The notes: a model not told the origin generated them from the sequence alone. A stretch of 64,000 bases of DNA from an uncultured Verrucomicrobiae bacterium (GCA_963706955.1 CAVPOC010000003.1:160001-224000); one strand, 5' to 3'; numbered from the stretch's first letter, positions 42,258 to 62,676 are shown. Numbers and translations: made by a program.

Positions 42258-42292
42258 GCAAGAATACGACAGGCATCGCAAGATCCCGCGAG
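42258..42292 (+). promoter_or_regulatory. Tandem 20-bp-period box, copy 1 (type B)
   Basis: GCAAGAATACGACAGGCATC-GCAAGATCCCGCGAG. Confidence 0.75.
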
Positions 42293-42331
42293 CAGCGAAT
42301 CGCTCGATGAACGATGGTCTCCTGGAAACCT

Positions 42332-42536
42332 ATGTCAGAAAAGTTTACAAATCTCGTTCATTCCTCACGAGAGGGTCAGAAATGCGAACCAGGTGCCAAC
42401 ACCAATACGGGTTCGCCGCGAAGGCAGTGGCCCGGGCAGGCTAGTCAAGGAGCGTGCCCCAGGGAATCGGATTTCGGTCGTCTTTACAGTTGGTGGGCCG
42501 CTGGTTTACCAGCCTCAGCGCGTCCGCGTCGCCTAA
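42332..42536 (+). CDS. Small ORF of the VFTVGGPLVY family (1-nt frameshift)
   Basis: MSEKFTNLVH...RISVVFTVGGPLVYQPQRVRVA*; homologous to 62692-62898. Confidence 0.5.
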
Positions 42537-43335
42537 CCAGTAGCAACCATTTCGCCAAAATCCGCGTGCTGCATTGCGTCGCTGGAGCAAGCGCTAGTGC
42601 GGTTATTTTAATATTTTGATGCTCGTGGGTAAGCGCTTGCAGAGGAAAGTCAGATTCACTTCAGATGACTTGTTTGCTGTTGTCTTTGCATCGCGCCGCT
42701 CGTGAATATGTTAAGACTGGCGCTTCAATGCGGCTGCTCCGGCCGACTCGACCTCTCGCAAGCGCGGCTACGCCTGCGGCGACTGCAACGCCGGTCATGA
42801 AGAAAGTCCCGCGGTGACCTATTGGACAGCCAGCGCAGGAGTAGCCGATTAGATGAATGCCGGTCGCATCATTCGGATCAGCCATCACGCCGCACCCTCA
42901 TTGAGGTTGAGGGTGGCTTCTTTATTCACGCGATCACAATCTGCCGGTTGACCGCCGCCGAGAAATATCTCGGACGCTTATCGCCGCTATATGCCGGTCG
43001 CTCTCGGCTCAGATTACCGTTAACGAATCGAGTCCCTTGATGCTCGCCGGGGCAAGAGTGTAATCTCTGGGTAATTGACACCCGATTTTGCACCTTGAGG
43101 AGGCCCGATTTTCGCACAAGAATCTGGACCTGGTGATTCCGAACACGTTCTCGGCGCGTATCAGATCGCCTGGAGCGATGAAAAGGTGCAGATCTGCGAG
43201 CAGCTCCTCATAGAATCGGTGTGAAGGTGCCCAAGCCGAGTGGGAGACTCGAACTCGTAGAAGATTGCTTTGGTCACAGCGAGATCGCTGCTGGCGCGTT
43301 GTTTGCCGTTTCGCTTCGCTCTCTCAAACAGTCTC

Positions 43336-44237
43336 ATGAACACGCCCAACCGAACGAGCGCCGCAGCGATCTCCCGTTAGGCCGGCGAGTTGTGGCGGAT
43401 AGCGCTTCGCTTCAATGGAAAGAGCTTTTCGTGCGGCGTTACCGATTTCCGAATGTGGTGGATCGTTTCCTCGTACCCGCAACCCCCGAGCCGTTAATCT
43501 CCTGCAGCCTCGCAGGCTCGGCCGAGTTCCGGGAGCGGGAGATTGGCGAGGCTTGGCTGAAACGGCAGATTGGCCCCGGCTACATTTTCGTCACCCGCTC
43601 AAAGACGCCCTATGAAGTGTGCCACACTTCGCCTGTGGGAGAGGAACTCGAAATTGTTCAGGTCCACATTGCGGTGGATCGCTTCCTTACGGCTTTGGAA
43701 GCTGCGTTTCCCGGCAAGACGGAAGAAGTGGAAGTGATGGACTACGCTGGGCGCGATGAAGCGCTTGCGCATCTTTGCTTTGCGTGCGCCGAGATGCTCT
43801 CAGCACGGACGCCCGGCAAGAGCAGACGCGTCACAGACCTGGCGCAGCTGTTCGCTTCATATCTCGTCGAAAAATACATCACCGCAGCCGCAGAGAAGCC
43901 CGATTTCCACAGTGGCCTGCCAATTTGGCGACTACGCAAAGTGGAGGACTACGTGCGTGAGCGACTCGCTGAAGAGATTTCAACCGAGACGCTCGCGGAG
44001 CTGGTGGAGCTGAGTCCGTTTCACTTTTCTCGTGTGTTCAAGCAGGCGACGGGAATGTCACCACTGCAATTTGTCACGCGCCAGCGGATCACCCGCGCGC
44101 AGCAACTCATCCGCGAAACCTCGCGCACTCTGATCGAAGTCGCCTTGGAGGTCGGCTATACCAGTCCGAGCCATTTCGCGAAAGTCTTTCGGCGCGTGAC
44201 CGGTGTGACACCGACCGAGTTCCGTAGCACCCTCTAA
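43336..44237 (+). CDS. AraC-family transcriptional activator
   Basis: GLPIWRLRKVEDYV, LSPFHFSRVFKQATGMSP, VALEVGYTSPSHFAKVFRRVTGVTP; probable start MNTPNRTS at 43336 with a frameshift near 43380. Confidence 0.92.
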
Positions 44238-44260
44238 GGGGTTGGCGCGGTCATTTTATC

Positions 44261-44321
44261 GCAAGAACGCGCTAGGGCGAGCAGGATCGGGCGAGAAGGA
44301 AACGGCGCGATGTCGGATACT
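44261..44321 (+). promoter_or_regulatory. Tandem box copy 2 (type A) plus -10 GATACT
   Basis: GCAAGAACGCGCTAGGGCGA-GCAGGATCGGGCGAG, 20 nt, GATACT; immediately after the AraC stop. Confidence 0.8.
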
Positions 44322-44411
44322 GCTGCCGTGCCTGAAACAGCTTCGGCATCGCACTACGAACATCGAACATAGCAAGGGCCGAATCGCTACCAACGTAAAA
44401 GGAGATAAACT

Positions 44412-60621: not shown

Positions 60622-60815
60622 CCATGGCCGCGACGAGCAAAATACAAGGATCAGACGTCTTCATTTCGTCCTCGGCTGGGCGATGCCCCACGGTCACGCC
60701 GTCTCTGGCGCTAACAACACGATGACTAAGGGGATTGACGGCATGAAGATTAGCCAGTGAAACGATTGCTTATGGTTCAATATTCTAATGCACAGGCCAA
60801 TGAAGACCAAATTCC

Positions 60816-61274
60816 ATGAAACATTCACTCTTAGTTGTTCTCTGTGTGTTTTCCCTTTTCCCGGATTTCGCCTCTGCTAACCCCGGCGCCGGAAACATTG
60901 ACGATAGTAACCCACATCCAGCTGGCAATAAAATGAGAATTAAAATCGGAACTAAGACGTTCCCCGCGACACTTTATGACAATGCCACAGCGGCCGCATT
61001 CAAATCGCTGTTGCCGATGACCGTCAAGATGGTTGACCTAAATGAAAACGAGAAATATTTCGATTTGCCGGGCAATCTGCCAACCAACGCATCTAATCCC
61101 GGAACAATCCAAAGCGGCGATTTGATGATTTATGGTCCTAATACCCTGGTGCTCTTCTACAAAACATTTTCTACATCCTACGGCTATACAAGGCTCGGAC
61201 GTATCGATGATACTAAGGGGCTTGCTTCCGCAGTTGGTTCCGGAACTTTAACGGTTACTTACGAACTGGAGTAA
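60816..61274 (+). CDS. Cyclophilin-like fold protein with signal peptide
   Basis: [42 protein letters not shown]. Confidence 0.85.
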
Positions 61275-61329
61275 ACGGGATTAACTTCATCGACCGAAGA
61301 ACTCCCCTGCGTCTGGTTGCCCACGACCG

Positions 61330-61472
61330 GCAGGTCCGGAGTCGGCCGAATTCGCCGACGCGCCGGCAGGCCCGAGGAAATCGCGTCCGTCGTGCTGTGG
61401 CTTTGCAGCCCGAAGGCGAGCTATGTGGTCGGCCATGCCCTCACCGTGGACGGCGGTTCGACAGTGGGGTGA
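61330..61472 (+). pseudogene. 3' fragment of an SDR (paralog of the 52443-53210 end)
   Basis: [34 protein letters not shown]. Confidence 0.7.
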
Positions 61473-61599
61473 TTCGCGACCTCATCTGGTGATGAAAACT
61501 CTGGCCCGGAAAAACCGAGTGCACGAGACTCCTCGCATGCAGAAACAGAAGGCGAACTACAAACCAAACCAAAATCCGCTCGAAAAGCACGGCTCGTCC

Positions 61600-62484
61600 A
61601 TGGACCGTCGAAGATTTGTCGTCGCGGGAGTGGAGGTAGGCTTTGGGGTAGTCGCGGGGTCCCTTATGCCAACCGCAACGTCCATCGCGCAAGCCACGTT
61701 GAATCCTCGGAAGGAACAAACTTCGACGTCGTCTCCTTCGAACACCAACCAGACCGCTCGTATCTTCATCACCGGCTCCGCTGACGGGCTTGGACACGCT
61801 GCGGCTAAAACGCTGCTCGCTGACGGATACCAAGTCGTGGTCCATGTTCGCTCTGAGGCTCGGCTCACCGCCGTGCAAGACCTTGTGGATCAGGGAGCCA
61901 TTCCGACAATCGGGGATCTTTCAGACTTCGCGCAGACGAGAGACCTCGCCAGCCAAGTCAATAAGATCGGACAGATGGATGCAGTCATTCATAACGCGGG
62001 TGTTTACTCAGGTCCACAAGTGCTTCCCGTAAACGTCGTTGCTCCCTATCTACTGACGGCGTTAATCCATCGCCCCAAACGGCTGATCTATTTGAGCAGT
62101 GGTATGCACACCGGTGGACGAACAACCCTCATTGGCATGGACTGGACTGGTCGCACTTCCACTGGTTCCTACTCGGACAGCAAGCTTTTCGTGACGACCC
62201 TTGCCGCAGCCGTCGCTCGAATCTGGCCTGACGTTCTCAGCAACTCTGTCGATCCGGGCTGGGTGCCGACCAAAATGGGGGGAGCTAATGCGCCAGATGA
62301 CCTGCGGCTGGGACATCTTACTCAAGAGTGGCTTGCTACTAGCAATGATCCTGAAGCGCTTACGAGCGGAGGGTATTGGCATCATCAACGACGCGCTAAG
62401 CCGCATCCCGCTGTCCACGATACAGAGTTCCAAGCTCAGCTGCTCGACGAACTCGCTCGTGCAACAGGCACTCCGCTGGCATGA
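61600..62484 (+). CDS. SDR oxidoreductase with twin-arginine-like leader (intact copy)
   Basis: MDRRRFVVAG..ATSIAQA leader; FITGSADGLG, HNAG, YSDSKL; start could be 61537. Confidence 0.9.
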   Translation: MDRRRFVVAGVEVGFGVVAGSLMPTATSIAQATLNPRKEQTSTSSPSNTNQTARIFITGSADGLGHAAAKTLLADGYQVVVHVRSEARLTAVQDLVDQGAIPTIGDLSDFAQTRDLASQVNKIGQMDAVIHNAGVYSGPQVLPVNVVAPYLLTALIHRPKRLIYLSSGMHTGGRTTLIGMDWTGRTSTGSYSDSKLFVTTLAAAVARIWPDVLSNSVDPGWVPTKMGGANAPDDLRLGHLTQEWLATSNDPEALTSGGYWHHQRRAKPHPAVHDTEFQAQLLDELARATGTPLA

Positions 62485-62615
62485 TTGATAAGCCTCAAGT
62501 CATATTTGACCATTGGCAGCAAATGTTGGGAATGCGTGACTACGCGCTGCGCATTCGGGCGGAGTTTCATAAAAGTGTCCCCCTAATCAACAGTAAAAGA
62601 GCGCGCCGCTTTTCC

Positions 62616-62676
62616 GCAAGAATGCGACAGGCGTCGCAAGATCCCGAGAGCAGCCACTTGTTCGATGGTCGATCGT
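62616..62676 (+). promoter_or_regulatory. Tandem box copy 8 (type B)
   Basis: GCAAGAATGCGACAGGCGTC-GCAAGATCCCGAGAG, 20 nt, GATCGT. Confidence 0.75.

Follow-up and report, generated by a model that had tools for sequence, protein, structure and literature searches.

A tandem promoter box that recurs eight times between positions 42258 and 62676 of a 64,000-nucleotide stretch from an uncultured Verrucomicrobiae bacterium (GCA_963706955.1 CAVPOC010000003.1:160001-224000; this whole stretch is called the window and numbered from its first letter) is most probably a class II operator of the AraC/XylS type, at which a regulator dimer would activate the adjacent NAD(P)H reductase genes. A preliminary description of this DNA had proposed an AraC/XylS-type tandem operator overlapping the -35 region upstream of oxidoreductase genes, and sequence comparison supports this proposal far beyond the source genome, making the motif a candidate family-wide operator of one AraC subfamily. 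We gathered 80 loci by protein alone, the best 80 of 543 confirmed candidates, and a matrix iterated from the window copies (the broad matrix) found 89 sites in 72 of them, across several phyla, and none in 240 dinucleotide shuffles.

The box and its predicted promoter

All eight described copies were recovered, at 42258, 44261, 47383, 49006, 52334, 58717 and 62616 on the plus strand and at 57221 on the minus strand. A T-rich run precedes each of them, and the second GCA stands exactly 20 nucleotides (nt) after the start of the first half-site in all eight. A -10-like hexamer starts 35 nt after the start of the second half-site in six copies, and at 33 and 32 nt in the two others, as had been reported:

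Operator copy 1: half-sites 42258-42272 and 42278-42292, plus strand; predicted -10 GATGGT 42313-42318; 44.3 bits
Operator copy 2: 44261-44321, plus strand; predicted -10 GATACT 44316-44321; 35.5 bits
Operator copy 3, decayed: 47383-47440, plus strand; second half-site shortened, hexamer GATGGT from 47435 at offset 32; 14.7 bits
Operator copy 4: 49006-49066, plus strand; predicted -10 AATATT 49061-49066; 35.9 bits
Operator copy 5: 52334-52392, plus strand; TATATT 52387-52392 at offset 33; 37.8 bits
Operator copy 6: 57187-57221, minus strand; predicted -10 TATAAT 57161-57166, beginning at 57166; 42.8 bits
Operator copy 7: 58717-58777, plus strand; predicted -10 GATACT 58772-58777; 40.2 bits
Operator copy 8: 62616-62676, plus strand; predicted -10 GATCGT 62671-62676; 48.0 bits

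No full copy lies in the window's first 42.2 kb, where the top score is 5.4 bits with a matrix built from the eight copies (the 8-site matrix) and 1.3 bits with the broad matrix. When the 4.16-Mb source genome (57% GC) was scanned with the 8-site matrix, the eight training copies ranked first (39-57 bits), followed by C3:127067 and C3:226250 at about 33 bits each, the latter being a ninth copy 2.2 kb right of the window; a mononucleotide-shuffled genome gave no match above 18 bits. With the broad matrix, the genome contains 10 strong sites, all within two clusters. The copy at 47383 scores no higher than 4.8 bits with the clade matrices (see below) and, judging by its sequence, is probably dead. 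The short spacer of the copy at 52334 is common to a relative and to a public sequencing run and is therefore real.

The consensus reads TTT-nn-c GCA[AG]GA-N4-GACAG, N5, GCA[AG]nn-N4-G[AC]GAG/GCGAC. Each half-site spans 15 bp, with an A-box GCA[AG]GA and a B-box GA[CG]AG, and the whole forms a non-palindromic direct repeat of 35 bp, whose period is 20 in 122 cases, any other spacing from 16 to 25 being seen twice at most. The matrix stops at position 34, so that the -10-like hexamer lies outside the model; there, an A at +56 and a T at +60 carry 1.8 bits each. The pattern xAxxxT occurs at offset 35 in 82 of the 89 sites (0-8 at 24 other offsets), in 44 of 49 once similar spacers are removed, and in 57 of 65 metagenome loci retrieved by DNA pattern only. 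With a spacer of 17 bp assumed, the proximal half-site would overlap the -35 region at a fixed distance from the -10. No box promoter passed a -35/-10 consensus scan of 42100-62000, which covers seven of the eight copies, and sigma70 and terminator consensus scans remained at chance level. The box points into its target gene whatever the position of the regulator gene (40 tandem, 22 divergent and 27 satellite layouts among the 89 sites). At one locus (L057:2969-2995), two back-to-back boxes on opposite strands have one T/A tract in common and form divergent promoters.

In the mechanism that we favour, the two helix-turn-helix (HTH) units of each subunit would read the A-box and the B-box of one 15-bp half-site. 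The half-sites would lie at about -67 to -53 and -47 to -33, where the proximal B-box would substitute for the missing -35 element and the proximal subunit would touch region 4 of sigma70, as in class II activation. A small molecule held in a cupin domain, gated by a conserved N-terminal arm, may switch the regulator on.

The preliminary description had counted eight copies, which are not eight independent observations: they represent about three duplicated lineages of promoter cassettes, including the decayed copy. Most pairs among the copies at 44261, 49006, 52334 and 58717 have 87-135 nt in common from the box start, with paralogous zinc-dependent alcohol dehydrogenase (Zn-ADH) sequences following three of them, and the copies at 42258 and 62616 have about 105 nt in common. 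The homology starts abruptly at the T-tract, and the island mixes complete genes with remnants as far as about C3:228100. All this would suit the idea that the repeats have no regulatory role and either accompany duplicated DNA or serve as a site of recombination or of a mobile element at which cassettes are assembled, an idea that we nonetheless consider very improbable. Identity peaks in the half-sites and falls in the linker and spacer, so that the boxes are better conserved than the flanking duplicated DNA. Within the lineage of 44261, 49006, 52334 and 58717, ungapped identity is 97% and 93% in the two half-sites, falling to 31% immediately upstream, 35% downstream and 49% in the spacer; comparisons between lineages give 74% and 70%, against 24-33% elsewhere. 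Furthermore, the motif is kept beside proteins that are about 35% identical, in lineages as far apart as Verrucomicrobiota, Pseudomonas and Rhizobium; it is non-palindromic, has a fixed -10 outside the matrix and always points into a gene. Neither a tRNA in the 110 kb around the island nor a recombinase among the island genes covered by the general annotation was found. With the boxes read as operators, repeated duplication of promoter-plus-gene modules would be the best explanation for the island and its nine clade-1-type boxes. Near-identical DNA is present in soil and rhizosphere sequencing runs, and RNA runs contain no more than 10% of its sequence words.

Association of the box with one AraC subfamily

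The closest homologous loci among the matches listed belong to Verrucomicrobiae, Terrimicrobiaceae or Chthoniobacterales. The 8-site matrix by itself finds the box in 41 of the best 80 loci, and in 0 of 240 dinucleotide shuffles. In the reverse direction, a strict DNA pattern alone retrieved 65 metagenome loci, many of them near-copies of each other; the N-terminal domain (N-domain) of the subfamily is encoded within 3 kb in 51 of these, or 53 with either profile, and eight of the 12 misses have no more than 202 nt upstream. Protein and box occur together in 12 of 41 genomes and are both missing from 27. The two discordant genomes have both on inspection, one with a broken regulator before the box (G011) and the other with a clade-2 box (G007).

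Across 301 genomes of the phylum, the strict exact pattern matched only once, in the source genome, and in none of the 293 genomes that lack the protein. This pattern is specific but too insensitive for counting presence, and the nine protein-bearing loci were therefore rescanned with the matrix, which recovered the box in seven of these nine new loci, or in six of eight without one that repeats a training locus. Within the source genome, 17 of the 21 AraC loci have no site above 3.7 bits within 6 kb, and the other four lie in two clusters.

The box also varies with the clade of the regulator. A quick tree of 72 rows gave three main groups; the box ends in CGAC in all 18 clade-2 sites, and has AG at the same places in all 30 clade-1 sites. 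With clade matrices and one locus left out at a time, the regulator clade was right for 88 of the 89 sites. Seven of the window copies reach 47-60 bits with the clade-1 matrix and 1-18 with that of clade 2, while the two boxes beside a paralogous regulator elsewhere in the source genome score 56-60 bits as clade 2 and 19-31 as clade 1, so that two unmixed box types coexist in this genome. The -10 hexamers of clade 1 (for example at 44310-44321) begin with G or C in 22 of 30 sites and are preceded by T and G at -17 and -16 in 21 and 24 of 30, and those of clade 2 begin with T in 17 of 18; the clade-1 form is possibly a promoter preference of these hosts. A reading of the clade-1 promoters as targets of an extracytoplasmic function sigma factor (GGAAAC...GTC) was dismissed by eye, the spacing being 8 nt in the copy at 44261.

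Regulators in the source genome and in Sinorhizobium meliloti

HTH_18 is present in all 131 members of the subfamily. The structure model of an intact ortholog of the window's regulator (predicted local distance difference test score of 94) comprises an N-terminal cupin domain and an AraC double HTH, with a well-ordered N-terminal arm. The cupin domain resembles those of BgaR (Z 11.7; 149 aligned residues, root-mean-square deviation 3.6), ExsA (9.7), AraC (9.0) and RhaR (8.1), and the DNA-binding domain matches AraC-type domains with Z 14-17. An Atlas search ranked unnamed clusters first. No Pfam model exceeded its cut-off in the N-domain of the first member, with weak scattered matches across the 131, and searches of PDB sequences and NCBIfam returned the DNA-binding domain only, with no named family above cut-off. 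An acidic residue occupies, in 51 of 72 rows, a position of the second HTH that we take to be that of RhaS D241, a sigma70 contact. Three Cys columns are filled in 20-22 of the 72 rows, which are those of clade 1 only. RclR and NemR are cysteine-based sensors of electrophiles or oxidants; assignment to this sensor class was rejected, since no Cys is family-wide and the RclR model gives 50.5 bits against a cut-off of 400.

Two regulator genes of the subfamily lie in the island:

43336-44237, plus strand: AraC/XylS regulator, clade 1 of an unnamed subfamily; HTH_18 91.4 bits (cut-off 33.6)
57308-57585, minus strand: second regulator remnant of the same subfamily, clade-3-like, multiply frameshifted

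The preliminary description had placed two box copies directly behind AraC genes. As positions these hold, the copy at 44261 lying 24 nt past the stop at 44237 and the copy at 57221 following the remnant; the genes themselves are not as described. The remnant is a dead second member, from a different clade of the subfamily, and its being broken differently in a relative (G004) makes it a real pseudogene. The interval 43336-44237 is not an open frame either: the ATG frame meets TAG at codon 15 (43378-43380) and the body (43386-44237) is in another frame, so that the protein as read would be unusable in the electrophoretic mobility shift assay that had been suggested. The region near 43378 is 4 nt shorter than in three orthologs compared; the body is 87-96% identical to same-genus orthologs. 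The part lost is the conserved N-terminal arm (P4 in 52, R6 in 49, T7 in 53, Y15 in 55 and G18 in 68 of 72 rows). The N-domain profile finds only two genes in the source genome, the one at 43336 and an intact paralog at C3:128185-129084 (35% identical). This paralog, of clade 2, belongs to another cluster, 75 kb to the left of the island (C3:127000-131500; L002:7050-11482) with two boxes and three aldo/keto reductase (AKR) genes; an unrelated AraC gene adjoins this cluster with its boxes.

We lean towards an assembly error, rather than a real lesion, as the cause of the break at 43336. None of the contigs inspected from public runs carries the broken allele; two bridging contigs (X3) and loose ends in X4, X5, X8 and X9 have the longer open form, though they come from related strains, and in the parts of the public runs covered no contig of the nearest strain bridged the break. 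At 43143, 43182, 49086 and 50345, the assembly departs from at least two public runs by a single inserted or deleted base, which may reflect errors or strain differences. If the lesion were real, the source strain's island could be an orphan regulon with both local regulators dead and nine boxes decaying, which we regard as a serious possibility, if short of probable. The loss of the arm, the second regulator remnant here and in G004, the decayed box, the short spacer, the several gene remnants and the different B-box preferred by the paralog's clade would all be in keeping with it. Besides the open form on related contigs, it is opposed by the single-base differences from independent runs at 43143, 43182 and 50345, by nine of 68 ortholog comparisons with relatives in which one of the two partners has a frame break, and by a gene body that is still about 95% identical to orthologs.

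A cultured member of the subfamily is SMa0319 of Sinorhizobium meliloti 1021, 37% identical to the window protein and 48% to the paralog. Its locus on pSymA (SMa0319-SMa0320) has boxes at 178998 and 180815, scoring 53 and 39 bits, before a short-chain dehydrogenase/reductase (SDR) gene and a small conserved gene. The papers found that name SMa0319 do so in passing, reporting RpoE2-dependent expression and a PhaR site upstream (L123, pSymA 177687-178974), which links its expression with general stress and with the control of carbon storage; they contain no description of its operator, inducer or regulon. A pool of RNA from 16 conditions, among them 10 mM H2O2, was used to map the transcription start sites (TSSs) of this strain, which were assigned to 2,657 of 6,296 genes (PMC3616915).

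Several observations weigh against the operator reading and must be set beside the evidence above. The window served as seed for the broad matrix, whose training loci are also those that it scores. As cross-checks, a matrix trained without proteobacteria gave all 31 proteobacterial loci more than 16 bits, and a proteobacteria-only matrix gave seven of the eight window copies at least 15 bits, the proteobacterial training sites themselves having been reached by iteration from the window. No box was found in eight of the 80 subfamily loci and two of the nine new ones, several of them on short contigs; the eight include some cut at or near the gene end. As box and adjacent gene are co-inherited, the tracking of clades is a lead and not proof of co-evolution. 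The regulator gene of the window is broken as assembled, and the sole intact member in the source genome is the clade-2 paralog, whose matrix gives the window boxes the 1-18 bits mentioned above. The N-domain has no family-wide Cys or His. Finally, the part of the S. meliloti TSS table reached by term search (PMC3616915) shows no TSS at the predicted 179065 or 180882, no leading TSS for the SMa0320 operon, and an mTSS of SMa0325 at 180820; this mTSS falls within the second box, 11 nt past the upstream stop, and misfits the predicted start. Given the share of genes covered by that map, the absence of starts is weak evidence; it fits a promoter silent without inducer, gives no support to the model, and speaks mildly against induction by general stress.

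The S. meliloti data also bear on the possibility that the box is a real promoter element read by an alternative sigma factor or another regulator, with the AraC gene as a co-travelling neighbour or a target. The RpoE2 dependence and PhaR site reported for SMa0319, the departure of the clade-1 hexamers (G/C-first with TG at -17/-16) from the usual sigma70 form and the unrelated AraC gene near the paralog's boxes could be taken this way. Nevertheless, the box adjoins a subfamily gene in tandem and divergent layouts, as well as in 53 of the 65 pattern-only loci; two 15-bp direct repeats two helical turns apart are the pattern of an AraC/XylS dimer; and the N-domain occurs in only two AraC genes of the source genome, with all 10 strong sites in the clusters of these two. 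We find this possibility most unlikely, and an operator bound by the subfamily's own regulator remains our preferred reading.

Predicted targets, possible signal and related systems

Among 88 first downstream open reading frames (ORFs), 72 were scanned and 16 omitted as likely near-duplicates by length and clade. The 72 comprise 25 SDR, 20 AKR, six Zn-ADH, two flavin reductase-like, two major facilitator superfamily (MFS), one LysR and one cyclophilin-like ORF, with 15 unassigned; AKR, SDR or Zn-ADH domains at E <= 1e-12 account for 51. A rescan of the 15 gave seven alpha/beta hydrolases, two cupins, one HlyD, one SDR fragment and four with nothing. In the window, the predicted targets are as follows:

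44412-47309, plus strand, copy 2: Zn-ADH N-terminal remnant (about 44 codons), DUF4440, SDR 45201-45986, flavin reductase-like 46743-47309
47674-48666, plus strand, after copy 3: aldo/keto reductase (PF00248, E 1.7e-73)
49225-51834, plus strand, copy 4: remnant 49225-49377, Zn-ADH from 49478, Ahr-like Zn-ADH 50806-51834
52443-54216, plus strand, copy 5: SDR 52443-53210, SDR-leader remnant, GNAT acetyltransferase 53701-54216
55418-57162, minus strand, copy 6: alpha/beta hydrolase 56047-57162, hexapeptide O-acetyltransferase 55418-55984
59207-62484, plus strand, copy 7: Zn-ADH 59207-60223, DUF2255, cyclophilin-like 60816-61274, SDR ending at 62484
63131-63637, plus strand, after copy 8: cupin (NF049940, (R)-mandelonitrile lyase, 210.9 bits, cut-off 140)

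Past the window, the unit of copy 8 continues with a carboxymuconolactone decarboxylase-like gene, an AKR, the ninth box at C3:226250, a Zn-dependent reductase and a second cupin (L001:5731-6126). A single surplus base near 50345, missing from three runs and from one relative, breaks the Zn-ADH from 49478 and is probably an assembly error. Copy 1 is without its original target gene, with no known-family gene within about 1 kb downstream (42325-43335), and the AraC gene comes next; in G003, a box-cupin unit lies directly upstream of AraC (L025:15636-19552), and positive autoregulation of AraC is possible in some genomes on the basis of this gene order. A glyoxalase/VOC-family gene (58024-58479, minus strand) lies inside the island with no box in its own orientation and was not counted as a target. 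Several predicted targets (63131-63637, 61423-62484, 56047-57162, L001:1805-2689 and L002:10340-11482) carry twin-arginine or signal-peptide-like leaders, as judged by eye. They include NAD(P)H reductases, and the export of cofactor-dependent reductases is puzzling.

We tentatively propose, and would rate just short of even, that the regulator responds to a reactive or aromatic carbonyl, or to a related xenobiotic, that the AKR, SDR and ADH targets would reduce. The aldehyde/electrophile-stress reading draws only on the target families and on the analogy with two AraC proteins, YqhC of Escherichia coli (PMC5297802) and CmrA of Pseudomonas aeruginosa (PMC11129675); according to these reviews, both activate aldehyde or aldo-keto reductase genes under electrophile stress, that is, NAD(P)H carbonyl reductases as predicted here. 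The same operator and activator could instead govern a catabolic regulon, with a plant-derived sugar, an aromatic or a cyanogenic compound in the cupin pocket, which we consider possible but doubtful. The closest structures to the N-domain are the sugar or ligand sensors BgaR, AraC and RhaR, a family-wide sensing cysteine is lacking, and among the targets are hydrolases, an O-acetyltransferase, transport genes of the MFS and HlyD types and a hydroxynitrile-lyase-type cupin; this cupin, being of the (R)-mandelonitrile lyase type, hints at cyanohydrin or aromatic aldehyde chemistry. The part of the S. meliloti TSS table searched also shows no start under H2O2, heat, salt or starvation. However, the targets look like interchangeable broad-range reductases of three unrelated folds, which depend on the clade and form no ordered pathway, the first targets contain no kinase, isomerase or ring-cleavage gene, and such reductases are what YqhC and CmrA control under aldehyde stress.

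The regulator is not of the YqhC type. YqhC has PF06719 (138.6 bits), for which the subfamily has only 11 weak matches in 131 members (best E 0.0015); the N-domain profile of the subfamily does not match YqhC, with a probability of 12% in profile comparison. The matrix leaves the yqhD promoter unrecognised, reaching at best -7.1 bits in the 8-kb E. coli yqhC locus, and the operator sequence of yqhD/dkgA is not shared. By eye, the yqhC-yqhD intergenic region of E. coli K-12 (L190:4220-4355) contains a direct repeat of 21-bp period, GGAGAAATAGGCA / GCAGAAATGAGCA, in which the hexamer CACAAT begins 36 nt after the start of the proximal copy, the layout being as here and the sequence different; it is a candidate for the YqhC dimer site.

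The nearest architectural relatives are XylS/Pm of Pseudomonas putida, MekR and MtlR/PmtlE of P. fluorescens, whose dimer sites are two 15-bp direct repeats of A-box and B-box upstream of or on the -35 (PMC5481539, PMC4514859). The A-box of XylS, TGCA, is similar to the GCA with which the half-sites begin here. In contrast to the strict 20 bp of the window motif, their period is 21-22 bp, and they have another B-box and another N-domain family; they are catabolic and narrow systems, whereas the motif described here spans several phyla with clade variants. Btr at PfeuA of Bacillus subtilis is an AraC activator with a direct repeat whose proximal copy abuts the -35 and is essential (PMC3333878), but differs in its 9-bp repeat, its siderophore-binding fusion domain and its iron uptake targets. 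GloR of P. aeruginosa likewise activates aldehyde-detoxifying genes through a short conserved box (PMC13760580); it is of the LysR type, with the palindrome TAATT-N7-AATTA and a sensing cysteine, neither of which the window system has.

The operator and its regulator family appear to be new, while the AraC/XylS direct-repeat operator is a known kind, here unusually widespread, and the mechanism itself is textbook; this assessment is provisional, as is the word undescribed, which reflects the lack of any description of the motif or the subfamily in open-access literature text, exact 15-nt half-site strings included. AraC/XylS operators are usually too degenerate to be read from sequence, and the motif of the window is sharp enough to call regulons. 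It links an N-domain without Pfam model to a recurring set of reductases, hydrolases, cupins and cyclophilin-like proteins of soil bacteria that are poorly understood, and provides a first promoter model, including the form of the -10, for uncultured Verrucomicrobiota. Through SMa0319, the inducer, the operator and the clade code can be tested directly in S. meliloti, and use as a biosensor is possible. More speculatively, and in our view rather unlikely, the roughly 60-bp cassette of operator plus -10 might be a phylum-independent unit copied before new genes, by which the subfamily would build chemical-defence islands through promoter shuffling, its clades splitting the B-box code (AGA/AGC vs CGAC) to insulate paralogous regulons. 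If this were true, bacteria ranging from soil Verrucomicrobiota to rhizobia and Pseudomonas would hold a readable and portable set of mutually orthogonal sensors of small molecules, with promoters that can be predicted.

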